The notes under the pieces are model-generated. The model did not search any database and was not told the DNA's origin. It was given only the letters and a program-made list of their open reading frames with translations. A stretch of DNA of 53,467 nucleotides from Bacillota bacterium. GTDB taxonomy: Bacteria > Bacillota > Clostridia > Oscillospirales > Acutalibacteraceae. Below are positions 22,016 through 44,665 of this stretch, piece after piece. The translations under genes and the position numbers were made by a program. Each line of letters starts with the position of its first letter. Position 1 is the stretch's first letter. Where the stretch lies: positions 1 through 53,467 of the forward strand of contig JAUZPX010000001.1 of assembly GCA_030705695.1 (NCBI GenBank), written 5' to 3'.

Positions 22016-22040
22016 TAAGACAAAAAGGAATGACAAAACA

Positions 22041-23819
22041 ATGGCAGAGCTTTTTTCAGGCTTAAAACGAACAAATTATTGCGGAGACCTGCGAATTTCC
22101 GATGCAGGCAAAACCGTTACCGTATGTGGTTGGGTACAGCGTCAGCGTAATTTAGGACAGCTGATCTTCATTGATTTACGCGACAGAGCGGGAATCCTGC
22201 AACTTGCTTTTGACGAAAATACAGAAAAATCGATATTTTCAAAAGCAGCCACTGTCCGCAGTGAATATGTCCTTGGCGTAGTCGGAGTAGTACAGGAGCG
22301 CAGTGCAAAAAACAAAGATATACCGACAGGTGATATTGAAATTAAAGTTACTGAACTTAGAATCCTTGGCGAAAGCGAAACGCCGCCTTTTGAAATTGTT
22401 GAAAACTGCAACACAGGCGAGGCTTCCCGCCTTAAATACCGCTATCTTGACTTGCGCCGTCCAGATTTACAGCGCAATATTCTGCTTCGTCATAAAATAG
22501 CAAAATCTACCCGTGACTATTTCGATGAGCAGGGCTTTATTGAAATTGAAACTCCTATGCTTATTCGCTCTACTCCTGAAGGCGCTAGGGATTTCCTTGT
22601 CCCGTCAAGAATTCATAAAGGAAGTTTTTATGCGCTGCCTCAATCGCCTCAGCTTTATAAGCAGCTAAGTATGGTAGCAGGCTTTGACCGTTATATGCAG
22701 ATTGCACGCTGCTTCCGTGATGAAGATTTACGTGCTGACAGGCAGCCTGAATTTACTCAGATTGACCTTGAAATGTCCTTTGTAGACATGGATGACGTTT
22801 TGGAAATTGTTGAAGGATATATGGTGCGTGTATTTAAGGATGCGCTGAATATTGACATTCCCGTTCCGTTCCCACGATTAAAATATGATGAAGTAATGTC
22901 ACGTTTTGGATCCGATAAACCTGACACACGTTTTGAAATGGAACTTTATGATATCTCAAATGCTGTTAAAAACAGCGAGTTTGTTGTTTTCAAAAGCGCT
23001 TTAAGTGGCGAAGGCTCTGTTCGCGGTATTACCGCCAAAAATGCCGCCAATATTTATACGAGAAAAGAAATAGACAAGCTCACGGAGTTTATAAAAGGCA
23101 TAGGCGCAAAAGGTCTTGCATGGATACGCTTGACAGACGAGGGGATTTCCTCTAGCTTTGCAAAGTTTATGACAGACGATGAGATGAATGAAATCGTTAA
23201 ACTTGCTGGCGCAGAAACAGGCGACGTTGTATTTATTGTTGCCGACTCGAATAATCACACAGTTTTGTCAACGCTTGGCGCATTGCGCTGCGAGGTTGCA
23301 AAAAAGCTTGACATTATCAAAGAAGGCTATAATCCGCTTTGGGTTGTTGAATTCCCGTTTTTCGAGAAAAACCCCGAAACAGGCAACTGGGATGCTATGC
23401 ATCATCCATTTACTTCACCAACCGACGAAAGCCTGAAAATACTTGAGCAGGATAAAAGCAAAGTTTATGCAAAAGCTTATGACCTTGTGCTTAATGGCAT
23501 TGAACTTTCATCGGGCTCTATTCGTATAACAAACCCCGAACTTCAAAAGAGAATGTTCAGCCTACTTGGATTTAGCGAAGAAGAGGCATACCAGAAATTC
23601 GGCTTCTTGCTTGACGCGTTTAAATTCGGTGCTCCTCCTCACGGCGGAATGGGTATCGGACTTGACAGGCTTGTCATGCAGATGATCGGTGCGCCTACAC
23701 TTCGCGACGTTGTGGCATTCCCGAAAATTCAAAACGCCAGCGAACTCATGACCTCCGCACCCAGCGAGGTTGATATACAACAGCTAAACGATTTGGGAAT
23801 ACAAATCATTACTGAATAA
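22041..23819 (+). CDS. aspS: Aspartate--tRNA ligase
   Basis: OB-fold N-terminus (FIDLRDRAGILQ), QPEFTQIDLEMSF, and GGMGIGLDRLVM. Bacterial-type length of 592 aa with the GAD insertion. Confidence 0.95.
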   Translation: MAELFSGLKRTNYCGDLRISDAGKTVTVCGWVQRQRNLGQLIFIDLRDRAGILQLAFDENTEKSIFSKAATVRSEYVLGVVGVVQERSAKNKDIPTGDIEIKVTELRILGESETPPFEIVENCNTGEASRLKYRYLDLRRPDLQRNILLRHKIAKSTRDYFDEQGFIEIETPMLIRSTPEGARDFLVPSRIHKGSFYALPQSPQLYKQLSMVAGFDRYMQIARCFRDEDLRADRQPEFTQIDLEMSFVDMDDVLEIVEGYMVRVFKDALNIDIPVPFPRLKYDEVMSRFGSDKPDTRFEMELYDISNAVKNSEFVVFKSALSGEGSVRGITAKNAANIYTRKEIDKLTEFIKGIGAKGLAWIRLTDEGISSSFAKFMTDDEMNEIVKLAGAETGDVVFIVADSNNHTVLSTLGALRCEVAKKLDIIKEGYNPLWVVEFPFFEKNPETGNWDAMHHPFTSPTDESLKILEQDKSKVYAKAYDLVLNGIELSSGSIRITNPELQKRMFSLLGFSEEEAYQKFGFLLDAFKFGAPPHGGMGIGLDRLVMQMIGAPTLRDVVAFPKIQNASELMTSAPSEVDIQQLNDLGIQIITE

Positions 23820-23833
23820 TTTATTATCTTTAT

Positions 23834-23872
23834 AAAAAGGACTGCAATCAAAACGATTACAGTCCTTTATTG
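23834..23872. terminator. Bidirectional hairpin terminator between convergent aspS and the phage-like cluster
   Basis: AAAGGACTGCAATC-AAAAC-GATTACAGTCCTTT, flanked by an A-run on the left and a T-run on the right. Confidence 0.65.
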
Positions 23873-23890
23873 TATAATTATTATTTATTT

Positions 23891-24367
23891 TCAGCTCACC
23901 CGAAATGTCACAAGCACAGAAAGATGAGCTGGAACGAACTTACTAATTTCACTTGTAATCCATTCTTTTTGCTGACTTGTAAACGAACCGATGCAATCCA
24001 CATGAATAGAATTGTTTGAGTACGATTCATATATTTCATACTGTATTCCAAGTGAAGCAAGCGTTTTATTAAAGCCATCGACTGTGAAATCATTTGTGGT
24101 AATCGAAAGCCTATCCGTAATCATTTGGCGACGCTTATCGATATTCAAATCATCCCTTACGCAGCCATAAATACGTTCTCTGTTGCGGATTCCGTAGTCA
24201 ACTGCGGTCGCAACGAACATCTCACGCTGAATTTCATCAAGCTCACTGTAAAATACATCTAAAGCACATGCAAACGCCTGCAATTCTTTATAATCTGTTT
24301 GAGTTGCCGACAAATTATACAATGCCATCGGCGACAAAACAGCAATCATGGAACTAAGGCTACTCAT
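23891..24367 (-). CDS. Baseplate wedge protein, P2 gpI / Mu gp48 / XkdU (DUF2313)-like
   Basis: 158 aa immediately after Baseplate J with an ATGA start/stop overlap. Size and position are typical of the gpI-like partner of gpJ. Confidence 0.6.
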   Translation of the reverse strand: MSSLSSMIAVLSPMALYNLSATQTDYKELQAFACALDVFYSELDEIQREMFVATAVDYGIRNRERIYGCVRDDLNIDKRRQMITDRLSITTNDFTVDGFNKTLASLGIQYEIYESYSNNSIHVDCIGSFTSQQKEWITSEISKFVPAHLSVLVTFRVS

Positions 24368-25437
24368 GATGATGCTCCTTCTTCTATTGCCTGAACTGAA
24401 ACAAGCATCGGAAATGTAGTTGAATCAAGCACGATATTTTGCATATATTCCGTATAAAAAGTGTAATGAGCAACGCCGTCAACTTGATGAAGAACGTCGC
24501 CAAGGTCAGAAAGATATATTGTTTCTCCAATGCCGACAGTCTTTGCATATTCACTAAGAGCTGCTTCACAATCGCTTATTACTGTTGCAGAATCATAGCC
24601 TGTTTTTTCTTTTATGGTTACAACAACACTAATATTTATTCCCTTTGCAGAAAAAACACGAACATCAACGTTTACTTCACGTTGACTGCTTAAATATTGC
24701 TGTACTTGTGCAACCAAATCGCTTGAGGCTTCTTGACCTTTTTCGCAAATGTACACATCAACAGTTCCTACACCTCTTGCACGAGGCACCACACCTGCCG
24801 AAAAAACGCCAGAAATCTTCATTGCTTCCTCTTTATAGTAGGCAATATTTGAACCGTTTGAGATGTTTTGATAACTGTTCAAAACTCGCTTGCGAAAGTC
24901 GTAATCATCTTCTGCATCTGTTCCACCTGCCGTCGGCGAAGAATTATTGACACTGTTTACTCCTGTTGGCGGAGTTACCATAACGGTTATGGTACTTGCT
25001 GCCACATTGCCGCTAACACCGCCATCCGCTGCAATTATTGGAACATTTATTCCGACTGTACCAGAAGCAATTACTGCATCTTTTGTTGTAACAAAACGAA
25101 TTGGATTAATTCCATTTGTTGCAACAACTGTACCCGACGGAATAGAAATATCATTGTTAGATGATGTATTAATAGAAAATGTTACTTCACCTGTGGCGCA
25201 AATGGCGGTTTTTCTGGTTAATCCACGCTGTTCTCCGTGATAATCCAGTTGGATTCCCGTAGCTGTTTCAGGAAACATCTGATTTTTCAGCCAATCGACG
25301 TTGGCTCCTGCACTAAATATTTCTCCTGCCAGTAATTTGATTTTTATCCCGATATCAGATGCATCATCGGCATCATATCCTGCCAGTTCTTTAAAATTGT
25401 CTTTCATTCTTTGTAAAATCGTATCGTAACTATCCAT
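24364..25437 (-). CDS. Baseplate J-like protein (P2 gpJ / Mu gp47 / XkdT)
   Basis: 357 aa. The N-terminus (ILQRMKDNFKELAGYDADDASDIG...LAGEIFSAGANVDWLKNQMFPETATGIQLDYHGEQRGLTRK) follows the Baseplate_J pattern. Confidence 0.8.
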   Translation of the reverse strand: MDSYDTILQRMKDNFKELAGYDADDASDIGIKIKLLAGEIFSAGANVDWLKNQMFPETATGIQLDYHGEQRGLTRKTAICATGEVTFSINTSSNNDISIPSGTVVATNGINPIRFVTTKDAVIASGTVGINVPIIAADGGVSGNVAASTITVMVTPPTGVNSVNNSSPTAGGTDAEDDYDFRKRVLNSYQNISNGSNIAYYKEEAMKISGVFSAGVVPRARGVGTVDVYICEKGQEASSDLVAQVQQYLSSQREVNVDVRVFSAKGINISVVVTIKEKTGYDSATVISDCEAALSEYAKTVGIGETIYLSDLGDVLHQVDGVAHYTFYTEYMQNIVLDSTTFPMLVSVQAIEEGASS

Positions 25438-25780
25438 GAATTATCACCTGTACTTCCCCTGTTTGTTTTTTATATGTTACCGAAACATTTAAAAGGATCG
25501 ATTTATCTGCTTGAAGCTCCGATGATGTTACAGAAGCTTCCACACCAGTAAGATTTATTACAGCTTCTTTCACGAGCATATCGGCACGTTCCTTTAGAAG
25601 ATCTGTTGTACGGCTTAATGTAAAGAACTCATTGCCGAAATCGGGCGCATAAACAAAACTTCCCTTTTGCACACCAAGACAGATACGAACCCGTTGCAAA
25701 ATCTCGTCAAAGCCACCGATTAAATAAGGCTTACCACCGGAATCAATCTCATACTGCCCATTATTTATTTTTGTATCCAA
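25430..25780 (-). CDS. gp25 / gpW / XkdS-like baseplate wedge protein
   Basis: 116 aa directly upstream of Baseplate J with an overlapping stop/start. TTG start with an AGGAGG SD. The motif layout (LQRVRICLGVQKGSFVYAPDFG) is like the GPW_gp25 family. Confidence 0.65.
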   Translation of the reverse strand: MDTKINNGQYEIDSGGKPYLIGGFDEILQRVRICLGVQKGSFVYAPDFGNEFFTLSRTTDLLKERADMLVKEAVINLTGVEASVTSSELQADKSILLNVSVTYKKQTGEVQVIIHG

Positions 25781-25791
25781 TTAGATTCCTC

Positions 25792-26124
25792 CTAAAACGT
25801 CTTGCCGTTAATAAGCACACTGCCGTCATTTTTTAAAATGATTGAAGCTCCTCCGCTTGAAAAAAGCATCAGCTCACCAGCAGCCAGGTTTTTGTCCTTC
25901 ATTGTAACACCAAGGCAGACTTCCCCACTTGAAAGCGGCAGAACTACAGAATTTTCTCCTGTCGGCGGTATATATGCAATCCCAAACGGCACTACAACAG
26001 GAAGAGAACGATATTCCTTTGAGGCATCAATAAAAACTTGTCCTTCCCCTGCACTTGTAACTCCGCCAATATCTGCTGATTGAGGTTTCTTTGTATTTTG
26101 CGCCATATATTTAGGTAGCCACAT
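25792..26124 (-). CDS. Baseplate spike/plug protein, gpV / Mu gp45 / XkdR-like (small OB-fold)
   Basis: 110 aa between the hub and gpW-like genes. The C-terminus (GELMLFSSGGASIILKNDGSVLINGKTF) resembles the gpV/gp45 family tail. Confidence 0.55.
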   Translation of the reverse strand: MWLPKYMAQNTKKPQSADIGGVTSAGEGQVFIDASKEYRSLPVVVPFGIAYIPPTGENSVVLPLSSGEVCLGVTMKDKNLAAGELMLFSSGGASIILKNDGSVLINGKTF

Positions 26125-27070
26125 AAGAAGATTCCGCCTTTCTTACAAGATGTATCGTCGTTTTTTCTTGATTTTGGTTTAATATATACTCAATTTTATT
26201 AACATACAGGTTTTCGTTTTGATAATCTGTGCTGTCCTCTAGCACAGCCTTTGAGCCAAGGCAGTTAACAATCATGCAAGGGCAAACGATAGTTAAATCA
26301 AAGCTGTCCTCATTACCGATATCCATGATTTTATCAGCTGTTTGAATCATTCCGTAATTATCGCCGACAGCATTCAGATAGCGCTTTCTTTTTACGCCTC
26401 TGGTAACTGCATCTTTATTAAAAACAGAAAAAGTATAGCCGCTTTTTAAATCTGTACGAACAAGAACCTGAGAAATTAATTTATTACGTTTTATGCTTAC
26501 GTTGGAAATAAAATATTGAATTTCGCTACCGTTGTTATTAAACAAAACAGCATTTTTTTGGGCGCTTTCTGAAACATCAACCATACCGTTTTCTGTGATT
26601 CTTGGGGTAGTATTTAGAAAATTCTTACAAAAGCTGTTTAACACATACCACTCTGTAACACCCTTTGTAACACTTAAAGTGCCTTCGGAGGCAGGCTTAT
26701 CGCTTATAAAGCCTGCAAGCCCGTAATCACGAATATGTCTGTCAAAGATCACTTCGATTGTAGGATTAATGTAATTTTGCGGCAGCGCTTCATTATCTAA
26801 AAGAAGCGCTGCCAAACTTCTTGCAACCACCTTTACAAAACTGCCGCTAATGGCGCTTGCCATATCCTGCTCGTCCACAATTCCCGTGAAAACAGTTGTA
26901 TCACCGTCTGAAACAGTAAGCATTTGCAGCTCTGGCAATGCGATTTCCGTTGGGAACAGCGCAGTTAACATATCGGCAGGGACATCTGTTTCTTTTTGAA
27001 TTATTAAACTTGAAGGCGTCGAAAGCGTTATGGTATCTCCGTTTGCAGTTATTGCACTGTAACTCAGCAT
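26111..27070 (-). CDS. Baseplate hub protein, P2 gpD / Mu gp44 / XkdQ-like
   Basis: 319 aa between the LysM protein and the spike, the canonical hub position. The assignment rests on gene order and size, not on a diagnostic motif. Confidence 0.5.
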   Translation of the reverse strand: MLSYSAITANGDTITLSTPSSLIIQKETDVPADMLTALFPTEIALPELQMLTVSDGDTTVFTGIVDEQDMASAISGSFVKVVARSLAALLLDNEALPQNYINPTIEVIFDRHIRDYGLAGFISDKPASEGTLSVTKGVTEWYVLNSFCKNFLNTTPRITENGMVDVSESAQKNAVLFNNNGSEIQYFISNVSIKRNKLISQVLVRTDLKSGYTFSVFNKDAVTRGVKRKRYLNAVGDNYGMIQTADKIMDIGNEDSFDLTIVCPCMIVNCLGSKAVLEDSTDYQNENLYVNKIEYILNQNQEKTTIHLVRKAESSYVAT

Positions 27071-27585
27071 ATTGTCACGCTTTCCCCCACGACAATTTCG
27101 TTAGGGCGCCTGATATTTGGATTTAACTGCAAAAGTTTTTCTACCGTTGTTTCATATTTGTTGGCAATGGTAAAAAGCGTTTCTCCGTCTGTTGCAATAT
27201 GAACGATTTTTTCGCTCTCTTCCTGAAAAGATGTTTTCATGTCCTCACGAAAAGTAAAGGAATACTGTACAAGATTCGGCGCAGGGACGCCGATAACAGA
27301 AAGACCGGAAAACACAGCAACAAACGGATTTGTGTTCGGAATTGATAAAATTCCCGTCCGTTTTTCTTCATAGAGTTTACGCAAAATATTATATTGAATA
27401 AATGCGTCATCTCCAAAAAGCTCGCCTTCACCTGTAATAACACGGTCTTTTTGCCCAAAATCCTGTAAAACTGAAATTCCGTTTGGCAAGTTAATTTCCG
27501 CCAGGTTTTTTCCGTCGGATATTTTAATTGTTTTGGGGTTATAGCGCCAAGTATATCCGCAAAAACGCATAGAAGCTAAATTCAT
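27064..27585 (-). CDS. LysM-domain tail/baseplate protein (XkdP / P2 gpX / Mu gp43-like position)
   Basis: Clear C-terminal LysM (HIATDGETLFTIANKYETTVEKLLQLNPNIRRPNEIVVGESVTI). The N-terminal ~120 aa is an unassigned beta-rich domain. Start and stop are both translationally coupled to the neighbouring genes. Confidence 0.7.
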   Translation of the reverse strand: MNLASMRFCGYTWRYNPKTIKISDGKNLAEINLPNGISVLQDFGQKDRVITGEGELFGDDAFIQYNILRKLYEEKRTGILSIPNTNPFVAVFSGLSVIGVPAPNLVQYSFTFREDMKTSFQEESEKIVHIATDGETLFTIANKYETTVEKLLQLNPNIRRPNEIVVGESVTIC

Positions 27586-27749
27586 CGTGCGCTTGCCTCC
27601 TGTTCTTCCGTAAGAGGGCTTGAGTAGCGTCGCAAATCACGTTCGAAAGCTTCGGAAAAGCTTTCAGCGGAAATTGACATATCACTTAACAAATTAAAAT
27701 GAGATTTTTCAAAATTATTTTGAGATGTCTGATCAATTTTAATTTCCAT
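27582..27749 (-). CDS. 55-aa hypothetical protein in the tail chaperone/tape-measure slot
   Basis: Below the ORF-track cutoff. My translation is MEIKIDQTSQNNFEKSHFNLLSDMSISAESFSEAFERDLRRYSSPLTEEQEASAR. Its ATG overlaps the upstream stop (TAATG) and its TGA overlaps the LysM gene's ATG (ATGA), which argues it is translated. Confidence 0.5.
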   Translation of the reverse strand: MEIKIDQTSQNNFEKSHFNLLSDMSISAESFSEAFERDLRRYSSPLTEEQEASAR

Positions 27750-28546
27750 TATGCCCCTCCCAAGGTTTTTGTTTTTGCCAGAATGGTTACGGTATCTGTA
27801 ATTTCATCTGTCAATCGTGAATTTATATCAATCGTATTACAGCCGCTGAATGTGATTTGATTTCCTTTAAAATCTACCGTCAAGTCAAAATCCGTTATAC
27901 TTGTAAAGTCATATGTAAAATCCATTGATTTTACATCAAACGTTATTTCATACTGATTATTCTGCATAACAAAACCGACAGGTCCGCTTTCGCCGAATGC
28001 CTGAATATCATACGCGGCTCTTATGGTTTTTATCTGAAAACTGTAAGCTTTTACGGCCGATTTACCCGGTATTGATATTAAAACACCAGCATTGCTTCCG
28101 CTGTTCGGGTTAACAAAGTTTACAGTAAGTGTTGTTAGAAAAGCATCGGCTTCGTGGTGATATGTAGTTTTGGATATATTAAATTCTTTAATGTTATACG
28201 ATTCAATTCGGTGATTTTTAAGTGCGTTTATTATATTCTCGGCAGCAGTAAATGTGCAGTCTTTTCCAAGTTTCGACGGGGAATAAATATTAAACTCAAT
28301 ATTGATCTTATCGGTGTCGCTGTCTTCAAATCCACTGATATACATATCACGAATATTCATAGTAACAGTCAATACTTTTAACGGATTCGGTGAAGGAAAG
28401 TTAGCGTAACCGTATCTAAGTTCCGAGAAACCAAGCTCTGAACTTGAAAATCCCGAAAAAAAAGTATAAAGCCCGCTTAAAATATTTGTAAAACTCACTG
28501 AGATATCACCGTGCTTTCCGAAATATACTTTTCTAAAATCGCCCAA
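27749..28546 (-). CDS. Hypothetical two-part protein in the tail-terminator/tube slot
   Basis: 265 aa from a TTG at 28546. A GTG at 28498 overlaps the upstream stop (GTGA) and is the more likely start, giving 249 aa. No sheath or tube motif is recognisable by eye. It is beta-rich and sits after the head-completion genes. Confidence 0.45.
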   Translation of the reverse strand: MGDFRKVYFGKHGDISVSFTNILSGLYTFFSGFSSSELGFSELRYGYANFPSPNPLKVLTVTMNIRDMYISGFEDSDTDKINIEFNIYSPSKLGKDCTFTAAENIINALKNHRIESYNIKEFNISKTTYHHEADAFLTTLTVNFVNPNSGSNAGVLISIPGKSAVKAYSFQIKTIRAAYDIQAFGESGPVGFVMQNNQYEITFDVKSMDFTYDFTSITDFDLTVDFKGNQITFSGCNTIDINSRLTDEITDTVTILAKTKTLGGA

Positions 28547-28854
28547 ATATAAACTATTTTATCTTTTACAACAAACGTATCTGCATTTTTAATGCAATAC
28601 TTAAATTCACCGCAAGTAATAACGGCTTCCTTTGTACATTGATCGAGCCTTATTTTAGGGCTTCCTATATATAAATAGTTGTTTTTGCTGTAATATCCCA
28701 ACGGCATATAATCGTTAAATTCACTTGACAGGTTTTTATAGCGCAAAGGTTCTATGAATGCTTTTCCGTTTGCAACAATTTTCTCCTGATCAGAAACAGA
28801 AATATTGCTGCCGTATTTATATAATATTTTTTGAAACTGACTGGGTAATTCCAT
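28495..28854 (-). CDS. Head-closure / head-tail adaptor protein (SPP1 gp16-like position)
   Basis: 119 aa with a TAATG overlap to the upstream gene. Size and position are typical of a head-completion beta-barrel protein. Confidence 0.5.
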   Translation of the reverse strand: MELPSQFQKILYKYGSNISVSDQEKIVANGKAFIEPLRYKNLSSEFNDYMPLGYYSKNNYLYIGSPKIRLDQCTKEAVITCGEFKYCIKNADTFVVKDKIVYIWAILEKYISESTVISQ

Positions 28855-29231
28855 TAAATCACCCGCCTGAACATAAAATTAACGTCATCAATTAATAAAT
28901 CTGCAACATCTGCTTTTGCCCGCTGCCAGATCTGCTCGGCTGCCTCTACAGACAAGCCAGAGGTTTCCATTGAAACATCGCCGACTTTTACGTTTTCAGG
29001 GGCGCCGCCGCCCTGATACAGGCAATACCTGTAATAACTCAGAGCGGCTGCGGCTGCGTTTAGGCGGCTAACATCTTCCGGCAAAATTGTTTCATTCCTT
29101 AATCTGCGTTGAATAAAATCCATAGCCTCTTTACAAATGGGGGACCATTGAGAGGTTTCCACAGGATCAAGGCCGGAAATAAGAACAAATCGATTCATTA
29201 CATCTTTAAAATTCAAGCCGCCACCTCCCAA
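28854..29231 (-). CDS. Head-tail connector protein (gp6-like position)
   Basis: About 120-125 aa directly after the major capsid gene. The best SD (GGAGGTGG) serves the in-frame TTG at about 29216 rather than 29231. Confidence 0.5.
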   Translation of the reverse strand: MGGGGLNFKDVMNRFVLISGLDPVETSQWSPICKEAMDFIQRRLRNETILPEDVSRLNAAAAALSYYRYCLYQGGGAPENVKVGDVSMETSGLSVEAAEQIWQRAKADVADLLIDDVNFMFRRVI

Positions 29232-29233
29232 AC

Positions 29234-30244
29234 TTAAAATGTTAGCTTCAGAGAAGCGTCGTTAAAGATTTTACCGAAACCTGAAATCACACTGATAGTA
29301 GCTCTTTCAAGCTGTCTGTCGATAAGCTTGTCAGAATCGAGCAAAATATCTCCTGCCTGTACCATTTCAAGAGCACAAGAACTGTCAAGTCCGATAATCG
29401 TATTACCTGGTATGCTTGGAACATGAAGTAACGATGCACCCATAGGAGTAATCATTTTGCCTGTACCCTGGAAGTTTAAGCCTGCAAGTGAGTCTTTCAT
29501 CTCTGGCATGCTTAAAAGTGTTTGAACTACAGATGTCGGAGCCAACAAAGTATTCAGCTCATAAGGAGCAAGGCTGCCCCAGAGTTTTAAAAGATCATTG
29601 TAAGTTACGGTACCCGGTGTTGCAGTTGTTATCGCAGCACAAGGATTTCCGTTACCGTCACCGTTTAACAAAACATTTACAGCATCGCCAAGCTGTGTTC
29701 TTGCCATTTGTGCGCCGATCTGGCGAAGTGTGACTGTAAATAAATCAAGACGTTGGAAACGCAATGCTTCATATGAAGAAACAAGCATTCTTCCGTGTTT
29801 TTGCAGATTAACAAGGTTATCCTGCATTTTAATCATAATCTGCGGAATTGCTGCTGACTCTTTTACAGGCTTCAGGGATTTTTCGCTTTGAGAAGCTACT
29901 GTTGTAATGCTGCGGTAATCCATACCGTTAATATTTGTTACTGTAGCGACAATTTGCGGAAGCATATCGGCATTTGTCATTCCCTGATAAACAGCTCTTC
30001 TTACATACTCAGGGAACAGTGCTGAACTGCTTGTATTTTGAAAAAATTTCTCTACAGTATCGCTTCCGATACCATTTACTTTTATATTAAAACGCTTTAA
30101 CTGACGCTCGTAAGCATCAAGACCGCCAAGAGGAGTGCTTTCGTAGTTTTCACTCGGGTCAAGTTCTTCCAGTACATTGGTAAGGCTTTTTCCGTTAATA
30201 TTGTACATACCTTTTTCCAATGTAATTGTTTCGTAATTTGCCAT
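29234..30244 (-). CDS. Major capsid protein (HK97-fold, lambda E-like arrangement)
   Basis: 336 aa with a strong SD (AGGAGG). It is preceded by a ~110-aa decoration-like gene and a protease/scaffold gene, which is the canonical head-module order. Confidence 0.7.
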   Translation of the reverse strand: MANYETITLEKGMYNINGKSLTNVLEELDPSENYESTPLGGLDAYERQLKRFNIKVNGIGSDTVEKFFQNTSSSALFPEYVRRAVYQGMTNADMLPQIVATVTNINGMDYRSITTVASQSEKSLKPVKESAAIPQIMIKMQDNLVNLQKHGRMLVSSYEALRFQRLDLFTVTLRQIGAQMARTQLGDAVNVLLNGDGNGNPCAAITTATPGTVTYNDLLKLWGSLAPYELNTLLAPTSVVQTLLSMPEMKDSLAGLNFQGTGKMITPMGASLLHVPSIPGNTIIGLDSSCALEMVQAGDILLDSDKLIDRQLERATISVISGFGKIFNDASLKLTF

Positions 30245-30261
30245 TATTTTTTCCTCCTAAA

Positions 30262-30600
30262 TTAAAGAATAAATCCGACATTGCCGTTTGTAACATCAAG
30301 AACAAGCAGCTTTCTGCCTTTTGTTGCGTCGGCTTTTACTTTCCCGCCGGCAGCAGCACAGAGGTTTTGGTAACCTACATTAACAGTACCGCTCATTGGA
30401 ACTGAAACATAACCTCCAAGCTGTACAGAAGCATATCCGTTTGATACACTGACAGCTATACCGCAAATGTCATCTCCGTCACCGCTTGGTGATACAGTGC
30501 CATTATCTGTTACTTTAACAGGTACGCCTGCACAGGTAAGACTTGAATCGGCAGAAAAAGTAACTATTCTTTCCCCATAGCCTAAAAATGAAATATTCAT
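30262..30600 (-). CDS. DUF2190-like head decoration/cement protein
   Basis: 112 aa, Gly/Val-rich beta protein immediately upstream of the capsid gene, as for lambda gpD / DUF2190 proteins. Confidence 0.5.
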   Translation of the reverse strand: MNISFLGYGERIVTFSADSSLTCAGVPVKVTDNGTVSPSGDGDDICGIAVSVSNGYASVQLGGYVSVPMSGTVNVGYQNLCAAAGGKVKADATKGRKLLVLDVTNGNVGFIL

Positions 30601-30619
30601 ATCCTAATTTCCTTTCAAA

Positions 30620-31600
30620 TTAAATTCGAAATTCGTTGTTTTTTGTTAATTGTTTTTGTTCTTGCTTATGAGCGTTAATCTGAGGTCTTGGTGGAAGAAA
30701 ATCAGCTGATTTTGCCTCATATGCCTTTTTAAATTCTTTCAGCTCATCAATGTTTAGCTTATCGGTAACGCTTTCAATAGTTTTTTTCGTTATCTCAGGC
30801 TGAACAATTGCGCTTAAACGAATAACCTCGTTTTGCAGCTCATTTTTATAGGCTTGTCCGTCTTTCGCAAGATTTTGCAATTCGGCAATTTCTGCTGCAA
30901 GTGCTTTTGCTTCTTCGCTGTTAAAAGAAACTGCCGACGAACCGCCCAGTTTTTTCATAATATCCGTCAATTTGATATCCTCCTTAAAAAATTCAAATTG
31001 CTTTATGACGCCTGCCGCACGTTGAGCAGGAACCGCCACAAATGACCATTCATAGGCATCAATGGGTTCGCTTAAAACCGTATGGCAAATGCCGTCTTTA
31101 TATGTTTTTCCTTTTTGATGCCCGCAGGAACCTTTCTTCATATCGGCACCGCAAACGGAACAAGTGAATTTCTGTACGCTACAGCCTACACTAACTTCCT
31201 TTTGCATACCTGAATCAATACTTAAAATAAAGTCCTCATTCTTTTTCGAACGCGGCAAATATGCTTTTGCCGTTAATCGAAAATAGTCATCTCCGCTTTG
31301 GGTTTTCTTGTTTTCAATAGCTTCAACAAAGCAGTCGTAAATCCTTGCGGTTTGATTTTCAGCTTTTGCTTCGTGGTCGAACACACCTGTTTTCCCTAAG
31401 AAAAGCTTTTGCAGCGCAAACAAGGCTTCCACCGAAAACCTCTCGAAATCCCTATCGATATCGTTGTCGCACAACACGACAGAGAACGTATAAACTTCAT
31501 CTGCTGACAATACCCGACGAGTATATTGATTAATAAGTTCCAAATCTTTTTCAGTAACTTGACTGTTCTCTGCACTTTTTAAAATTTCTGCTGTTTTCAC
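30620..31600 (-). CDS. HK97-type prohead protease fused to a coiled-coil scaffold domain
   Basis: The N-terminal half has an S78-like layout (FDHEAK...G.QKEVSVGCS) with an embedded CxxC...CxH zinc-ribbon-like insert (CSVCGADMKKGSCGH). The C-terminal ~120 aa is helical and charged, as in scaffolds. A GTGA overlap joins it to the portal stop. Confidence 0.6.
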   Translation of the reverse strand: MKTAEILKSAENSQVTEKDLELINQYTRRVLSADEVYTFSVVLCDNDIDRDFERFSVEALFALQKLFLGKTGVFDHEAKAENQTARIYDCFVEAIENKKTQSGDDYFRLTAKAYLPRSKKNEDFILSIDSGMQKEVSVGCSVQKFTCSVCGADMKKGSCGHQKGKTYKDGICHTVLSEPIDAYEWSFVAVPAQRAAGVIKQFEFFKEDIKLTDIMKKLGGSSAVSFNSEEAKALAAEIAELQNLAKDGQAYKNELQNEVIRLSAIVQPEITKKTIESVTDKLNIDELKEFKKAYEAKSADFLPPRPQINAHKQEQKQLTKNNEFRI

Positions 31601-32763
31601 TGATTCACCTCCGTCATTTGAGCCTCAAGTTGAGACGCTTTTGCGTTTAAATATCTTGCGTTTGCCAAACCGACCTCGTCCTGAAGATTAATGTTGTTCC
31701 ATTTGATTTCAAAGTCATCGTCCTTACCGTTAAGGCGCAACCACATGGAACAGATTTTTCCGATTGTCTGATTTAACAAACTTCTGTAATATTCCAGCTC
31801 GCTTGTTAAGATGTCTGATTGCTGTGAGGACATTCTTTCGCTACTTGACCAAGAAAGCCCAAGCAAAAACGGAGGAATACCGAATTTTGAGACAATTTGC
31901 TCTAAAATTTGGCGAACAGGTACTTCGCTGTCAAGAACCTGATTATCCGCACCGATAACTTTAATTGATACATCTCCGACTGCTACAAAATCATTGACTC
32001 TGCCAAAATCATTACGCATTGCTTTACTCCATTCGGTGGCAATCTGTGTAGCACGCTCTTTTGAATAAGCCTGCGCACTGACATCGTCGCCAGGATTGTA
32101 AGTAACAGCAAAACGCACATTACCAATACGTTCCCAGTTTGAACCGATACTGTTGAAAATCTTTAAGAGAACAGAGCTGACAAAAGGTAACCCCTTTAAC
32201 AGCGATGTTCCGTAGATTCCGCCCGGTTCAGGATTTAGCATAGTCGTTAAAATCAGCGTAGGAAAAGGAACAGGTTCGCTTTGCCCGAAAGCATTGTATC
32301 GGCAGATCTGTGCTTTTAACGGAGAATCTGTCGGCAAAATCTCAACATCCTCAAGCGATGCATTATAGAGCGCCGCGATTGTTGTGTTGTCACTTGACAA
32401 TACAATCTCGCCGACAGCCGTTCCAAAAGTTAACATCTGGTCAAAATATGTATACAAAAACTGTAAAATTCCTTGTCCGCAAGCTCCAACCTGTACGGTT
32501 CTTAAAAATTGATTCAACAAAGTCTGTGTGTTTTCATCATCACAAACGATATTAAAATCTCCAATTAGCCTAACAATTTTCCCGATAGCCGCATCAATAA
32601 TTGGTACAGCTTCTCTAAGAGTTTTATACAGGCAGATTTCAGCCTGACATAAAGGAACATATCTGTTTAAGACGGTAAAAGGATGCTGACTCATTGACCC
32701 CGAGGATACCGTTTGTACGGTAGAATCCACATCCTGTTGCTTAGGTTTTTTAAAAAATCCCAC
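31597..32763 (-). CDS. Portal protein
   Basis: 388 aa between the large terminase and the protease/scaffold. GTG start with an AAGGAGG SD. Confidence 0.65.
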   Translation of the reverse strand: MGFFKKPKQQDVDSTVQTVSSGSMSQHPFTVLNRYVPLCQAEICLYKTLREAVPIIDAAIGKIVRLIGDFNIVCDDENTQTLLNQFLRTVQVGACGQGILQFLYTYFDQMLTFGTAVGEIVLSSDNTTIAALYNASLEDVEILPTDSPLKAQICRYNAFGQSEPVPFPTLILTTMLNPEPGGIYGTSLLKGLPFVSSVLLKIFNSIGSNWERIGNVRFAVTYNPGDDVSAQAYSKERATQIATEWSKAMRNDFGRVNDFVAVGDVSIKVIGADNQVLDSEVPVRQILEQIVSKFGIPPFLLGLSWSSSERMSSQQSDILTSELEYYRSLLNQTIGKICSMWLRLNGKDDDFEIKWNNINLQDEVGLANARYLNAKASQLEAQMTEVNQ

Positions 32764-32833
32764 AGCCTCACCTCCTTCTTTTTATAGGGCAATCAAAAGC
32801 CTCGAACAAAATTGTCCGAATGGGATATCAGCT

Positions 32834-34111
32834 TTACGATTGTCCCGTTCTTTCTGCGGCAATGGCTACAATACCATCGTCGCTTCTGTTTGCAATGGTC
32901 GTAACAAAATAGCGGATATCGTCCATTGCATGATCGTTTTCTTTTAAGGGCATGTCCCTGTCACCTTTTTCCGCATAGCGATAAAGAGAAAACTCCCTCA
33001 TGCTGTCAAGGCAAGTGTTACAAATGTTTACCCTGCCATCTTTCAATGCTGAACTTACTTTGCGGATACCGTCCTGAACATTGTTTTTTGCAGGAATTAC
33101 CGTAAATCGCCCCTGCCGCCTGATAACCTCAATAAAGCTTGCTGCTGACGGATCCACCGTTACAATCTTGACGGCATGGTTTCCTGCCAGAATGCAAAGT
33201 GCTTTATAATGTTCTTCATCAGTTTTTTGATATCCTTCTTTACGGGAATCAAAGTAATATTCTTTTAGACGGTACCATTTTCCGCTTTTCTTTCCCCACA
33301 AACCGAAAGAAGCGGGGTTAACGGTTCCATAATCGCATGAAATGGCATACTCGCTGCACTTCCCTTTGGGAACAGCACAAAATTTTTCTTCTGTCATAAA
33401 GGAATAAACAACGCCCTCTGCCGCAACCCATTCTCCCTCGACAAAGCGTCGATAAAATGCGCCTGAATACAGAGATTTATAGCGGCACAGCATTTCTTCC
33501 GAAAGAGACGGATTATCCTCCATTTTGAAATGAAGATAATGTGCATTTTTTTGCTTTGCTCCTAAAATCCATTCCTGACGAAACCAATGCTGAGGAAACT
33601 CAGGATTACAGTTAAACCAAAACTTTGAACCGCTTACCGAACATCTTGCTACCGCCTGCTCCACAAAAGAGCGAGGCATAAGTGCAACTTCATCGAAAAG
33701 GCAGCCTGCAAGAGTCATACCCTGTATAAGAGCCGCCGAACCTTCATGCTGTCCACCAAACAGATAAAAGCGATTACTGTTTTCACCGTAAGATACCTCT
33801 AAGACATTCTCAGAAAGCTTTTCACAAACCAAAAAACCAAGCTCTTTTAAAATAGGTGTAAGCGGTATTACAACATTTCGTCTTAACGACCTAATTGTCT
33901 TTCCGCAAAGTCCAAAGCTTTTGCCGTTAAACTCATAAAGCGCCCACGAGAAAAAAGAAATCCCCATGCAAACGGTTTTTCCGCTTCGCACAGCGCCGTC
34001 ACAAATAATAGCGTCACGGCCGGCATGTTTGCTCTGACCATACCACCAAGTAAAGGCACTGATTTGTTTCTTCGAAAAAACTTCAAACTGCATCGCTTTC
34101 CGGCTCAACAT
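32834..34111 (-). CDS. Terminase large subunit (PBSX/XtmB-like)
   Basis: Walker A (CDGAVRSGKT), Walker B-like (CLFDEVALM), and a C-terminal nuclease block (ENDHAMDDIRYFV). Confidence 0.9.
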   Translation of the reverse strand: MLSRKAMQFEVFSKKQISAFTWWYGQSKHAGRDAIICDGAVRSGKTVCMGISFFSWALYEFNGKSFGLCGKTIRSLRRNVVIPLTPILKELGFLVCEKLSENVLEVSYGENSNRFYLFGGQHEGSAALIQGMTLAGCLFDEVALMPRSFVEQAVARCSVSGSKFWFNCNPEFPQHWFRQEWILGAKQKNAHYLHFKMEDNPSLSEEMLCRYKSLYSGAFYRRFVEGEWVAAEGVVYSFMTEEKFCAVPKGKCSEYAISCDYGTVNPASFGLWGKKSGKWYRLKEYYFDSRKEGYQKTDEEHYKALCILAGNHAVKIVTVDPSAASFIEVIRRQGRFTVIPAKNNVQDGIRKVSSALKDGRVNICNTCLDSMREFSLYRYAEKGDRDMPLKENDHAMDDIRYFVTTIANRSDDGIVAIAAERTGQS

Positions 34112-34538
34112 TATTTTTTTGCAGAGCCTCCACCCCTTCTCTCAGAGCTTTATAAAAAGACGGTTCGCCTTTTTTCTCTTGCTCTGATTCGGTTGTTTCG
34201 AGTTTTTCAAGAGCTTTCATGCGATCAAAAAATTTCATTTCAATGATTCTTCCGTTTTGCCCCTTTACCTGTGAAACATTAAATAAATCCATATGCATTA
34301 GCTCTTCATCGCTCATATTCTCGCTGCACATAGCTCTAATACAATCGGAAATGCTGCCAAATGCCAGTTTCTTATATCCGTCAATAACCTGGTCTCGGAG
34401 CGTTTTTTCGCTCTCTTCCAAAAAAGCCAAAACCTCCTTTCTCGAAACCCGTAACAATAAGAAAAGCCGCCTCCCCAGACGGTTGCCTTCTTTTGCTCGG
34501 TTCTCGGTAATTCTAAGCTCAGAAATTACAAAGGACAC
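34083..34538 (-). CDS. Terminase small subunit, C-terminal (oligomerisation) part only; start uncertain
   Basis: The C-terminal two thirds resemble the Terminase_2 core (LAFGSISD..., IEMKFFDRMKALEKL). No N-terminal HTH of the GYS..A type is visible. The GTG at 34538 lacks an SD, while an internal AAGGAGG precedes a TTG at about 34404. The gene overlaps the large terminase start by 29 nt. Confidence 0.55.
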   Translation of the reverse strand: MSFVISELRITENRAKEGNRLGRRLFLLLRVSRKEVLAFLEESEKTLRDQVIDGYKKLAFGSISDCIRAMCSENMSDEELMHMDLFNVSQVKGQNGRIIEMKFFDRMKALEKLETTESEQEKKGEPSFYKALREGVEALQKNNVEPESDAV

Positions 34539-34649: not shown

Positions 34650-35156
34650 TTGAATCGCATTAAAAAAGAATTCTATCAAAATTCCGCCGTTGATTTAGCA
34701 CCTGCATTGTTAGGCAAATTACTTTGCCGAAATATTGAAGGCGAAATATATAAGCATCGTGTTACCGAAACCGAATGTTATTTTGGTGAAAGCGATACCG
34801 CCTGCCATGCTCACAAAGGAAAAACAGAACGCACAAAAATCCTCTATGAAGAGGGCGGTATTGCATATATTTATCTTTGCTACGGAATACACAGTCTTTT
34901 AAACATCGTCACGGGTGAAAAAGGATTCCCGCAGGCAGTACTGATTCGAGGAATCGAAGGCTATATTGGTCCTGGGCGACTAACAAAGCATCTGCAAATA
35001 GACAGAAATTTAAACGGAGAAGATTTAGTTTTTTCAAAAAAACTATGGCTTGAAGATGACGGATTCACACCGCATTATAAAGTTTCAAAACGTGTAGGCA
35101 TCGACTACGCCTCAGAAGAAGACAGAAACAGACCCTGGAGATTTATTGTTGATTAG
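34650..35156 (+). CDS. mpg: DNA-3-methyladenine glycosylase (Mpg/AAG family)
   Basis: FY......VA..LLGK.L N-terminus, ETE.Y....D.A.HA, and AYIYLCYGIH motifs typical of the family. TTG start. Confidence 0.85.
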   Translation: MNRIKKEFYQNSAVDLAPALLGKLLCRNIEGEIYKHRVTETECYFGESDTACHAHKGKTERTKILYEEGGIAYIYLCYGIHSLLNIVTGEKGFPQAVLIRGIEGYIGPGRLTKHLQIDRNLNGEDLVFSKKLWLEDDGFTPHYKVSKRVGIDYASEEDRNRPWRFIVD

Positions 35157-35789: not shown

Positions 35790-37160
35790 TTATTCCATAA
35801 TTTTCGGCAGAGAGTTAAACCCTGGTACTAAATCTTCATCTGTAGGGATATAATCGTTCATTTTTCCTTCTAAGAACGATGTATATGCGGTCATATCGAA
35901 ATAGCCTGTTCCGGTAAGTCCAAATAGGATAGTTTTGGCTTCACCTGATTCTCTGCATTTGATCGCTTCATCAATTGCAGCTTTAATCGCATGAGAAGAT
36001 TCAGGAGCTGGCAGAATAGTTTCGATTTTTGCAAACATCGTTGCTGCTTCAAAAACATCTGTCTGATTTGCGGAAGTTGCCTCAAGGTAGCCGTCATGAT
36101 ATAGCTTTGACAATATTGGTGACATACCGTGATAACGTAATCCGCCTGCATGGTTAGAAGAAGGAATGAATCCGCTACCCAAAGTATACATTTTTGCGAG
36201 AGGTGTTGCTTTACCTGTATCGCAGAAGTCGTAAGCGTATTTTCCTCTTGTAAGTGATGGACAAGAAGCAGGTTCGACAGCAACAAGTCTCGGATTTGAT
36301 TTTCCTGTGATTTTATCGGCTGCAAACGGAGCAATCAATCCTCCCAAATTCGAGCCGCCTCCTGCACATCCGATTACGATGTCAGGATATTCATGCAAAA
36401 TCTCCATAGCTTTTTTTGCTTCCAAGCCGATAACTGACTGATGAAGCAGAACTTGATTCAAAACAGAGCCAAGTACATAGCGATATCCCGGGGTTGTTAC
36501 GGCTTTTTCCGTAGCTTCAGAAATAGCACAGCCAAGGCTTCCTGTTGTATCGGGATGCTCTTGCAAAATTGCACGGCCTACATTGGTTGTCATACTTGGG
36601 CTTGGGATAACCTCAGCACCAAAAGTCTGCATAACGGCGCGGCGATATGGTTTTTGTTCGTAAGAACATTTAACCATAAAAACAGTAAGCGGTAAATTAT
36701 AGTAAGCACATGCTTCAGATAATGCCGTACCCCATTGACCAGCTCCCGTTTCGGTGCAAAGCCCTTTTATTCCCTGCTCTTTAGCGTAATAAGCCTGTGC
36801 AATAGCAGAATTCAGCTTATGACTGCCAGATGTATTATTGCCCTCAAATTTGTAATAGATTTTTGCCGGTGTTTTAAGAGCTTTTTCAAGATTGTATGCA
36901 CGAATCAATGGTGCTGGACGGTAAATCTTGTACATTTCCAAAATTCCCTCAGGGATATCAATGAAACGTGTTGTAGCATCGAGCTCCTGTTTAACAAGCT
37001 CTTCACAGAAAATGGGTGACAAATCATCTGTAGTTACAGGCTTGTGAGTACCTGGATGTAAGAGCGGATCAGGCTGCTCTTTCATATCTGCACGCAGATT
37101 GTACCATTGTCTCGGAATCTGATCCTCCGATAAATAAAAACGGTAAGGTATTTTTGCCAT
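35790..37160 (-). CDS. trpB: TrpB2-type tryptophan synthase beta-chain-like PLP enzyme
   Basis: 456 aa, longer than TrpB1. It has the PLP-lysine context (NNTSGSHKLNSA), GGGSN, and a TrpB2-type N-terminal extension (PYRFYLSEDQIPRQWYN). There is no adjacent trpA. Confidence 0.85.
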   Translation of the reverse strand: MAKIPYRFYLSEDQIPRQWYNLRADMKEQPDPLLHPGTHKPVTTDDLSPIFCEELVKQELDATTRFIDIPEGILEMYKIYRPAPLIRAYNLEKALKTPAKIYYKFEGNNTSGSHKLNSAIAQAYYAKEQGIKGLCTETGAGQWGTALSEACAYYNLPLTVFMVKCSYEQKPYRRAVMQTFGAEVIPSPSMTTNVGRAILQEHPDTTGSLGCAISEATEKAVTTPGYRYVLGSVLNQVLLHQSVIGLEAKKAMEILHEYPDIVIGCAGGGSNLGGLIAPFAADKITGKSNPRLVAVEPASCPSLTRGKYAYDFCDTGKATPLAKMYTLGSGFIPSSNHAGGLRYHGMSPILSKLYHDGYLEATSANQTDVFEAATMFAKIETILPAPESSHAIKAAIDEAIKCRESGEAKTILFGLTGTGYFDMTAYTSFLEGKMNDYIPTDEDLVPGFNSLPKIME

Positions 37161-37194: not shown

Positions 37195-37467
37195 TAAAAA
37201 TAAAAAAACCCTTGTCCACTAATCGGGACAAGAGCTACTCCTGCGGTACCACCCAAATTGACTGTATAAACAGTCCACTTGCTCCACATACGATTATATG
37301 CGCTTCCTTGATAACGGGTGAAGATCCCGGCTTCGCTACTTTAATAATTTCACGTTGCCCTCATAAGTCCATTCTTTGCATCTTTGCTTACCGCACTTTC
37401 AGCACCGGCGGCTCTCTAAAAAGCATCTGTTGCAAATACTACTCTTAATCACAGGTTTATCTTATTT
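37195..37467 (-). promoter_or_regulatory. T-box riboswitch leader (probable Trp specifier) with terminator/antiterminator
   Basis: The minus strand contains the conserved T-box sequence AATTTGGGTGGTACCGCAGGAG (37239-37259). It is followed by the terminator CTTGTCC-CGATTAGT-GGACAAG plus a T-run. AGAGAG and GCTGAAAG stem-I elements lie upstream, and GAAUGGA provides a candidate UGG specifier. Confidence 0.8.
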
Positions 37468-41683: not shown

Positions 41684-41759
41684 TGGAGCGGATGACGAGG
41701 CTCGAACTCGCTACCTCCACCTTGGCAAGGTGGCGCTCTACCAGATGAGCTACATCCGC
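41684..41759 (-). tRNA. tRNA-Gly (anticodon GCC), CCA encoded
   Basis: The minus strand reads GCGGATGTAGCTCATCTGGTAGAGCGCCACCTTGCCAAGGTGGAGGTAGCGAGTTCGAGCCTCGTCATCCGCTCCA. It folds as a cloverleaf with a 7-bp acceptor stem, GCTC/GAGC D stem, CCACC/GGTGG anticodon stem, TTGCCAA loop and a TTCGAGC T-loop. Confidence 0.95.
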
Positions 41760-44633: not shown

Positions 44634-44665
44634 AACCTCAATATCATGATAAAGAAGGAGTTACT

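Follow-up and report, generated by a model that had tools for sequence, protein, structure and literature searches.

The closest published system to the locus described here, as judged from published gene count and annotation, would be FpGTA of Faecalibacterium prausnitzii (Borodovich et al. 2026, PMC12946183), a gene transfer agent (GTA) whose 40-nm particles have been shown experimentally to carry about 8.5 kb of host DNA. Its operon I spans 10.5 kb and holds ten open reading frames (ORFs), with tail genes of podovirus type, and a second operon of 5.5 kb encodes baseplate, fibre, receptor-binding protein (RBP), holin and endolysin; the tail of the particles is not visible or very short, the small terminase subunit (TerS) has no obvious DNA-binding domain, and Gemmiger and Subdoligranulum are reported to lack homologues of FpGTA (PMC12946183). 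Here we describe an element of 16 co-directional minus-strand ORFs, 10.6 kb long (positions 23891-34538), in a stretch of 53,467 nucleotides (the window) from contig JAUZPX010000001.1 of a Bacillota bacterium of the Acutalibacteraceae (assembly GCA_030705695.1). Like FpGTA it is a phage-derived operon of about 10.5 kb in gut Oscillospirales without replication or integration genes; unlike FpGTA, by the latter's published description, it has 16 ORFs, among them the genes of a complete Mu/PBSX-type baseplate. Full-text searches of the published literature returned no description of the element, and sequence pipelines had flagged it as 'viral' only, in the form of uncultivated viral genomes (UViGs) in IMG/VR, 'Bacteriophage sp.' records in GenBank and PHROG families.

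In our view the element is probably a phage-derived operon that gut and rumen Oscillospirales (Ruminococcus-like taxa, Acutalibacteraceae and Ruminococcaceae) have domesticated and fixed in the chromosome, and that would produce a short-tailed, GTA-like particle; it is a strong candidate GTA. The parts of this reading differ in firmness: that the operon is selectively maintained and particle-forming, with a minimal tail of myoviral descent, is very likely; that it acts as a GTA has an even chance of being right.

The case for maintenance comes from the relatives of the element. Relatives of its major capsid protein (MCP) fall into at least 8000 clusters at 90% identity, the best of them 64-72% identical and mostly from metagenome-assembled genomes (MAGs) of Ruminococcus, Acutalibacteraceae and Oscillospiraceae, and these are carried by bacterial contigs as long as 734 kb; an exact look-up of the window's own MCP in the contig index gave no match. 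At least 597 species-level carriers were counted among gut and rumen Oscillospirales when one genome was taken per GTDB species; they include the cultured Ruminococcus sp. JE7B6 (complete genome), Hydrogeniiclostridium mannosilyticum and Faecalispora jeddahensis. The MCP of the element is also found on 426 IMG/VR contigs, many of which are about 10-11 kb long, the size of the element. For gene content we compared 168 related loci (the best 80 loci in the case of the genome scan). Nearly every locus has the 16 families in one and the same order, and full-length ORFs of each of the 14 scored families are found in 86 of the 94 loci that span both ends. Medians of dN/dS (Nei-Gojobori method, 11 independent pairs) lie between 0.06 for the MCP and 0.21 for the short ORF o10 in all 17 families, with 0.08 for the large terminase subunit (TerL) and 0.09 for the portal, and the ratio is below 0.5 in every comparison, including those of the gp25-like protein and of both halves of ORF o09.

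The chromosomal setting is similarly stable. Housekeeping genes without an integrase flank the element in more than 80 relatives, and a recurrent context is formed by spmA/spmB-like genes and gerA upstream and by two conserved genes and mfd downstream; the window keeps the spm-like genes upstream and has aspS-hisS downstream, the latter genes also being found downstream in one further locus (L080). Non-synonymous divergence of the elements correlates with that of their flanks (Spearman 0.64 over 273 non-independent pairs) with some outliers, so that inheritance appears to be mostly vertical with some replacement. In two pairs of loci (L039/L016 and L082/L041) similar flanks (dN 0.07-0.08) enclose divergent elements (dN about 0.36), which suggests occasional replacement by recombination at a fixed site. 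Conserved synteny together with low dN/dS thus points to a maintained, domesticated locus rather than to decay. A first-pass annotation of the window, made from its letters alone, had likened the locus most to domesticated ones of GTA type and had proposed a comparison across related genomes; this comparison revealed the conserved synteny and low dN/dS that it had suggested looking for, and no presence/absence polymorphism with att scars. The same annotation had named, as an observation that would overturn its reading, relatives with a full-length prophage, integrase and att sites at this position, and none were found: every locus has the same element of about 11 kb.

These data bear directly on the possibility that the locus is a decaying prophage remnant, an internally deleted PBSX-like myophage without current function in this genome, which we regard as very unlikely. 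Eight of the 94 complete relatives do have a missing or shortened gene, neither the element nor its scanned flanks contain lysis, fibre or regulatory genes, and in the window TerS lacks its helix-turn-helix (HTH) and the promoter box is displaced (see below), all as a remnant might. Decay is nevertheless difficult to reconcile with a compact gene set shared by more than 160 loci and at least 597 species, with dN/dS of 0.06-0.21 in all families and 86 intact loci, with the lack of any relative that has a full-length prophage, integrase or att repeats at the site, and with the state of the window itself, in which all 16 ORFs are open and translationally coupled as one operon.

The sequence of the window upheld most of what had been said about the architecture of the locus. 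The 16 co-directional ORFs lie between aspS and mpg at the coordinates that had been given, each of the reported overlap junctions (GTGA, TAATG, ATGA and others) is present, the GC content of the element equals that of its flanks, and no att-like direct repeats bracket it. Pfam and PHROG scans of the element and its immediate flanks found no sheath, long tape measure, fibre, holin or endolysin, integrase, repressor or phage replication gene, again as described, and likewise no integrase, repressor or lysis cassette among the remaining genes of the window. The statement that no ORF is frameshifted or truncated holds for the reading frames, all of which are open, but not for the N-terminus of TerS, which lacks the HTH of most relatives. 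The locus does not fit any of the three classes that the first-pass annotation had set aside: a normal integrated prophage would have an integrase, att sites and full-length relatives; a tailocin would be free of capsid and packaging genes, whereas terminase, portal and MCP are present and conserved here; a capsid-forming phage-inducible chromosomal island (cf-PICI) or other satellite would carry integrase, replication genes and regulators, none of which is present here, and would lack the baseplate that the element has. What the locus does show are two properties of GTAs, namely a chromosomal cluster of structural and packaging genes without replication, integration or lysogeny control, and its long-term retention under purifying selection.

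Our reading departs from the first-pass annotation in the tail, for which it had seen no obvious tube and had described a head plus baseplate with nothing between them. We find neck proteins, a terminator-tube protein and a tape-measure stub to be encoded. The key gene is o09, whose true start is the GTG at 28498, in the GTGA overlap, giving a protein of 249 aa (the ORF had been listed as 265 aa). An iterative HMM search over the 168 loci revealed that the two halves of o09 correspond, in about 57 loci, to two neighbouring genes of about 145 and 125 aa; in about 20 loci, including the window, they form a single gene. In two loci, L025 (a Hadza-gut MAG) and L002 (GenBank MT835769), a gene of 348 or 357 aa that matches Phage_sheath_1/Phage_sheath_1C lies exactly between homologues of the N-terminal type (HMM E-values 3e-35 and 2e-7) and of the C-terminal type (6e-31 and 8e-33), and contractile tails, that of the annotated Fusobacterium myophage phiHugo among them, likewise have the order tail-completion/terminator gene, sheath, tube. 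Nearly all Foldseek matches of an AlphaFold2 (AF2) model of o09, built on a 5-sequence alignment, are tube, Hcp or terminator proteins: the neck of phage 812, the tubes of Mu and T5, the Hcp of the type VI secretion system, the AFP and PVC tubes, lambda gpU, SPP1 gp17 and the tube of a Halogranum virus. Their E-values are weak (best 4.8e-3 in the PDB and 2e-5 in BFVD) and, given a low pLDDT (61.6) and thin alignments, these fold matches are supportive and not decisive. The HMM of the C-terminal half has the XkdM tube as its best match in phiHugo (E 0.028). Sequence searches reached little else: a word-indexed protein search with the single sequence returned only o09 itself, a profile of 18 sequences found 5 proteins and an exhaustive HMMER search only 31, and it appears that the family evolves too fast for such searches to reach the named tube families. 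Because of the split and fused forms, the sheath between the halves in L025 and L002 and the tube/Hcp/terminator folds, we assign o09 with moderate confidence to a fusion of tail terminator and tail tube.

The adjacent o10 tells a similar story. Its conserved part consists of 26 residues (DAErlSEiLERDSRRYsraLtEEeEA), and longer proteins end in this motif in L002 (183 aa) and in L025 (94 aa), both encoded directly upstream of the LysM gene, where phiHugo has a tape measure of 622 aa. Since the motif ends longer proteins at the tape-measure position, o10 is best read as a vestigial tape measure. A tail usually measures about 1.5 Å per residue of its tape measure, so about 50 residues leave room for only one or two tube rings. 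The window has no long tape measure besides this stub of 55 aa, and a sheath is missing both from the window and from 166 of the 168 loci, being present in L025 and L002 only.

The order of these genes is that of the tail module of PBSX (the xkd genes of Bacillus subtilis), a domesticated defective phage that packages host DNA (PMC12946183), and of phiHugo: neck, tail completion, (sheath), tube (XkdM), (chaperone and tape measure), LysM protein, hub, small spike, gp25-like protein, Baseplate J and gp48-like protein. Unlike PBSX and phiHugo, the element has no sheath, chaperone, long tape measure, fibre, lysis cassette or regulators; unlike PBSX, its terminator and tube are fused and it occupies 10.6 kb instead of about 28 kb. 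Taken together, these features suggest that the element encodes an ultra-short tail derived from that of a myovirus by loss of the sheath, the chaperone and nearly all of the tape measure. Nearest-neighbour identities did not place the sheath-bearing L025 as either basal or nested, which fits one sheath loss as well as several. Five further loci (L047, L055, L109, L110 and L069) have an interval of only about 0.8-0.9 kb between the MCP and LysM genes, no o09 and a TerS without HTH; they may represent an even more reduced form of the particle.

The baseplate core of Mu, P2 and PBSX, with gp44-, gp45-, gp25-, J- and gp48/gpI-like proteins, is present, the spike being its weakest member: the top PDB match of the o13 family profile, 9ki1_V, a 'baseplate puncturing device gp45', is a weak one. 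The gp25-like protein, whose match to PF10934 (31.8 bits) lies just below the cut-off of 32.9, belongs to a family known as 'sheath initiator' and is probably kept for a structural role in the wedge, not for sheath nucleation. The 3' end of the operon comes in two forms. A 17th gene of 155 aa follows the gp48 gene in 52 loci (e.g. L004 16450-16917) and is absent from the window; it accompanies a C-terminal extension of about 30 aa in gp48, occurring in 46 loci with a long gp48 and in none with a short one. A short gp48 of about 158 aa is found in 28 loci, none of which has the 17th gene and which include the window and the complete genome of strain JE7B6. The window thus carries the regular short-gp48 form, and its 3' end is not truncated. 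The profile of the 17th gene found nothing significant in Pfam or among PDB sequences; its tie to the extended gp48 suggests an accessory protein that docks on gp48, possibly receptor-binding or fibre-like.

On the side of the head, the roles that had been proposed for TerL, portal and MCP, as those for the LysM protein, hub, gp25-like protein, Baseplate J and gp48-like protein, are supported by Pfam, PHROG, PDB-profile or Foldseek matches (Table 1), while TerS, the gp45-like spike and the decoration protein are supported by weaker evidence than the others. For the MCP, an AF2 model gave 69 Foldseek matches at E<=1e-3 to capsids of the HK97 fold, including that of a cf-PICI and that of the alphaproteobacterial GTA RcGTA; the model is of low confidence (pLDDT 57.4), derives from an alignment of low diversity and has no bearing on the T number. 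Capsid homologues of 346 aa (60-62% identical) occur in a different gene context on three IMG/VR contigs of 56-109 kb from sample 3300045988 (L153, L164 and L165), the first of which also has a homologue of 196 aa with the protease part only; these contigs may belong to a true phage of the same capsid lineage. The two proteins described as head-completion proteins, o07 and o08, hold the appropriate position, but their family profiles have no significant homology in Pfam or among PDB sequences and no homologue of known function could be detected; the start of o07 is likely the TTG at 29216, which gives 120 aa. Similarly, the description of o04 as a protease fused to a scaffold is consistent with a weak PHROG match to head maturation proteases (E about 4e-4), with invariant residues in the N-terminal part (H76, S137/S186, C147/C150/C159/H161) and with a C-terminal part whose PDB matches, at chance level (E 0.3-1), are every one of them helical proteins; nothing firmer was found, with no Pfam match in 20 family members and nothing significant for the family profile against PDB sequences.

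Table 1. Features of the element and its borders in the 53,467-nt window, with the evidence for each assignment (E-values unless stated otherwise).
Feature	Position	Strand	Evidence or remark
aspS	22041..23819	+	one flank of the element; hisS-aspS span 20708-23819
11-bp hairpin and T-run	23834..23865	-	between convergent gp48 and aspS; GGACTGTAATC-GTTTT-GATTGCAGTCC-TTTTT, read from the sequence
Mu gp48/P2 gpI-like wedge protein, short form	23891..24367	-	Phage_Mu_Gp48 6.7e-12
Baseplate J wedge protein	24364..25437	-	Baseplate_J 6.7e-55
gp25-like wedge protein ('sheath initiator')	25430..25780	-	PF10934 1.6e-7; phrog_120 1.5e-8
Small central spike (o13), Mu gp45-like, weak	25792..26124	-	9ki1_V 0.038; phrog_25991 3e-11
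Hub (o12), Mu gp44 type	26111..27070	-	family profile vs PDB: 3d37 8.6e-11, 3cdd 3.5e-6, 1wru (Mu gp44) 2.4e-3
LysM tail/baseplate protein (XkdP/gpX position)	27064..27585	-	LysM 5.2e-10
Vestigial tape measure (o10), best reading	27582..27749	-	55 aa; only the C-terminal motif (ERDxRRY...EEEEA) conserved; dN/dS 0.21
Terminator (N half) and tail-tube (C half) fusion (o09), moderate confidence	27749..28498	-	split/fused homologues; sheath position; fold matches
Neck protein 2 (o08), head closure/stopper by position	28495..28854	-	family in 153 loci; dN/dS 0.18
Neck protein 1 (o07), head-tail adaptor by position	28854..29216	-	family in 155 loci; dN/dS 0.17
MCP, HK97 fold	29234..30244	-	Phage_capsid_4 4.5e-14; phrog_3922 5e-91
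Small head protein (decoration/minor capsid)	30262..30600	-	phrog_4588 'virion structural protein' 4e-16; weak XM1_gp53
Prohead protease and helical scaffold fusion (o04), probable, weak	30620..31600	-	phrog_16951 (function unknown) 5.7e-100
Portal	31597..32763	-	phrog_30703 1.1e-134; weak Phage_portal match
TerL	32834..34111	-	Terminase_6N 5.7e-14; phrog_2 1.4e-43
TerS, oligomerisation core only	34083..34538	-	Pfam Terminase_2, profile positions 55-125 only
Operator-like dyad TTGCAT-N6-ATGCAA	34556..34573	.	upstream of terS; single copy in the window
mpg	34650..35156	+	opposite flank of the element

TerS deserves particular attention with regard to the cargo. Its match to Terminase_2 covers the C-terminal two thirds of the protein, the core of the family HMM aligns at residues 40-139, and translation probably starts at the TTG at 34421, behind an AAGGAGG Shine-Dalgarno sequence. 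Of 122 relatives, 102 have an N-terminal HTH of the Terminase_2 type (K-LT-REK-FC...GN..EAA..AGY); the window and a few other lineages (the L047 group, L069 and L002) do not. GTA terminases have been reported to lack a DNA-binding domain in TerS (PMC12946183, citing earlier work), and from the window's TerS packaging is expected to be sequence-independent, i.e. of host DNA. In many relatives (L074, L082, L078, L052 and the L121 group) none of the codons ATG, GTG and TTG is available where the HTH-encoding terS should begin; ATA or ATC stands 6-8 nt behind a strong Shine-Dalgarno sequence, GGAGGTG. This suggests a non-canonical start that would keep TerS low. One locus (L056) has an in-frame TAG within the HTH of terS.

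RcGTA and other alphaproteobacterial GTAs are similar to the element in having a compact chromosomal head-tail cluster with vertical inheritance and purifying selection. RcGTA further has a TerS without DNA-binding domain (a likeness that applies to the window, most relatives of the element keeping the HTH), its capsid is among the HK97 folds matched by our MCP model, and its accessory genes are unlinked, as they are assumed to be for the element. The tail of RcGTA, by contrast, is of siphovirus type and includes a tape measure, and the lineages and origins of the two are unrelated.

The packaging genes also invite comparison with the cf-PICIs, in which TerS, TerL, portal, protease, MCP and connectors form a similarly small module and among which the best Foldseek match of the MCP model, the capsid of EcCI2, is found. 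The element might accordingly be a helper-dependent satellite with its own head and baseplate that relies on a co-resident helper phage for sheath, fibres, lysis and induction signals and preferentially packages itself, an alternative that we regard as improbable. Beyond the capsid match, it would account for the size of 10.6 kb, which is that of a satellite, for the TerS HTH of most relatives, which suggests sequence-specific packaging, and for the gp25-like 'sheath initiator', which selection has preserved in the absence of a sheath gene. On the other hand, cf-PICIs have an integrase, a replication module, regulators and att sites and no baseplate, and the element is the reverse: it lacks integrase, excisionase, replication and regulatory modules and att repeats; its chromosomal context is conserved across species, with correlated divergence of element and flanks; and a terminator-tube fusion with a tape-measure stub of 50 aa leaves no room for a long tail of the helper type.

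The operon thus encodes a complete packaging head (TerS, TerL, portal, the protease-scaffold candidate, small head protein and HK97-fold MCP), two neck proteins, the terminator-tube fusion, the tape-measure remnant of about 50 aa and a full Mu/PBSX-type baseplate. If it is indeed the domesticated, GTA-like locus that we favour, its products would form a small particle in which about one or two tube rings connect the baseplate with the portal, podovirus-like in shape and a myovirus by descent. The terminase would fill the head by a headful mechanism, in the window presumably with host DNA irrespective of its sequence, as in a GTA. Attachment to the Gram-positive wall would be mediated by the LysM protein and the baseplate; release would occur through lysis functions encoded elsewhere or through lysis of the mother cell; and regulation, like any RBP, would be supplied from elsewhere in the genome.

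Such a particle could also be domesticated for purposes other than transfer, either as a bacteriocin-like, cell-wall-targeting device or in a role connected with sporulation or mother-cell lysis. The neighbouring genes are often spore genes (gerA, spmA/spmB and genes for small acid-soluble proteins), lysis genes would be dispensable if mother-cell lysis gives release, and PBSX, which kills without injecting DNA, provides a precedent that has been raised for FpGTA as well (PMC12946183). We nevertheless consider this explanation unlikely, because the full terminase-portal machine is under strong purifying selection, which argues that filling with DNA matters, and because a contractile killing mechanism is absent where there is no sheath.

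Several observations weigh against the interpretation as a GTA-like operon or limit its reach. The shape of the particle, its packaged cargo and the transfer of DNA are read from the genes; the AF2 models of o09 and of the MCP are of low confidence; and for o04, o07 and o08 the roles are guessed from position. The 53-kb window has no lysis, fibre or regulator gene, whose location elsewhere is assumed, and an unlinked sheath gene may lie elsewhere in the genome. As the HTH is kept in most relatives, the expectation of non-specific packaging does not extend to the family as a whole. Finally, the 5' end of the operon is atypical in the window, where the conserved promoter box is displaced and a canonical leader is missing, so that the expression of this copy is uncertain and could be poor.

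The upstream control region is itself of some interest. The dyad TTGCAT-N6-ATGCAA is present in 53 loci, with one copy per locus and always just upstream of terS (e.g. L004 5665-5682); other lineages have TTGACC-N6-GGTCAA or CTTGAC-N7-GTCAAG in the same place. The typical order in relatives is dyad, T-run and, about 19 nt further, a box of the GGTATAGGTGAGAGG type; in the window the closest GGTATAGGTGAGAGG-like sequence is degenerate and lies about 100 nt downstream of the dyad rather than about 19 nt. The centre of the dyad falls near -41.5 relative to a -10-like TATAGG and in this respect resembles a class-II activator site; alternatively, dyad and T-run may be seen as a hairpin with its T-run. 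A leader hairpin 3' of the conserved box has z < -1.5 in 8 of 19 loci and, being confined to a subset of loci, is not claimed as a feature of the family. At the opposite end, the hairpin between the convergent gp48 and aspS genes is likely a bidirectional terminator of the operon; it was not called by the pattern scan. Consensus promoter and terminator scans performed at chance level, and Rfam contained no known RNA within the element.

The surrounding genes are those of the host: mreBCD, a gene for a penicillin-binding protein, minD and mgsA on the upstream side (in plus-strand reading), and genes for a pyridoxal-phosphate (PLP) enzyme, two spmA/B-like 'Gate' proteins and a CBM26 protein, dnaB/dnaI-like genes and a gene for an Amidase_3-LysM protein on the downstream side. 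A T-box leader (123 bits, 37221-37461, minus strand) that precedes the gene for the PLP-dependent enzyme (35790-37160) and a tRNA gene (41687-41759, minus strand) are ordinary host features. The CBM26 starch-binding protein (40715-41554, plus strand) hints at an amylolytic host similar to Ruminococcus bromii. The Amidase_3-LysM cell-wall hydrolase (44489-45781, plus strand), about 10 kb from the element, could be an enzyme of sporulation or autolysis.

Chromosome fragments with the element have already entered the sequence databases as phages. Two 'Bacteriophage sp.' records are bacterial chromosome: L003 (MT835508.1, 46.7 kb), with SecY, RpoA, RnfC, NrdD and ABC transporters, carries only the head-and-neck half from terS to the terminator and no baseplate genes, and in L001 (MT835952.1) gerA and host genes precede the element. 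That such records from human faecal samples, which may stem from purified virus-like particles (VLPs) or from whole-community DNA, represent chromosome carrying the element is circumstantial evidence for the packaging of host DNA, as is the GTA-like packaging seen in related taxa. GTA-like packaging of host fragments of 4.6-8.9 kb has been reported from faecal VLPs for Ruminococcaceae and Oscillospiraceae, and for several taxa, namely Gemmiger, CAG-115, Onthomonas and Ruminococcus callidus (4.6-kb fragments), the responsible loci were not identified (PMC12946183); in a 2019 preprint, R. bromii and F. prausnitzii are among the genomes that recur in VLP preparations. Among the best 80 loci the element could not be linked by name to R. 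callidus or R. bromii, the clusters being named only 'Ruminococcus sp.'. We put forward only tentatively that the element is an undescribed, independently evolved GTA of Ruminococcus/Acutalibacteraceae, the first to have arisen from a contractile-tailed phage through loss of sheath and tape measure, and that it is the source of some of the unassigned packaging in faecal VLPs. Possible examples, offered with the same reserve, would be the 4.6-kb fragments of R. callidus and the repeated appearance of R. bromii as 'contamination' in viromes.

The element is best classed as a new architectural form among GTA-like domesticated phages, and, if active, it would provide a defined locus against which the GTA-like packaging signals of faecal viromes can be examined. 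Its relatives form a natural reduction series, from a sheath with a 183-aa tape measure through a sheath with 94 aa to the lack of a sheath with about 50 aa, then to the fusion of terminator and tube and, in some lineages, to the lack of any tube; from this series one may learn what tail assembly and DNA delivery through a Gram-positive wall minimally require. If active, the element would explain the DNA of these bacteria in purified VLP preparations as well as the chromosome fragments deposited as 'phage', and would constitute a very widespread vehicle of gene exchange, found in at least 597 species-level genomes, among the fibre- and starch-degrading Firmicutes of gut and rumen.

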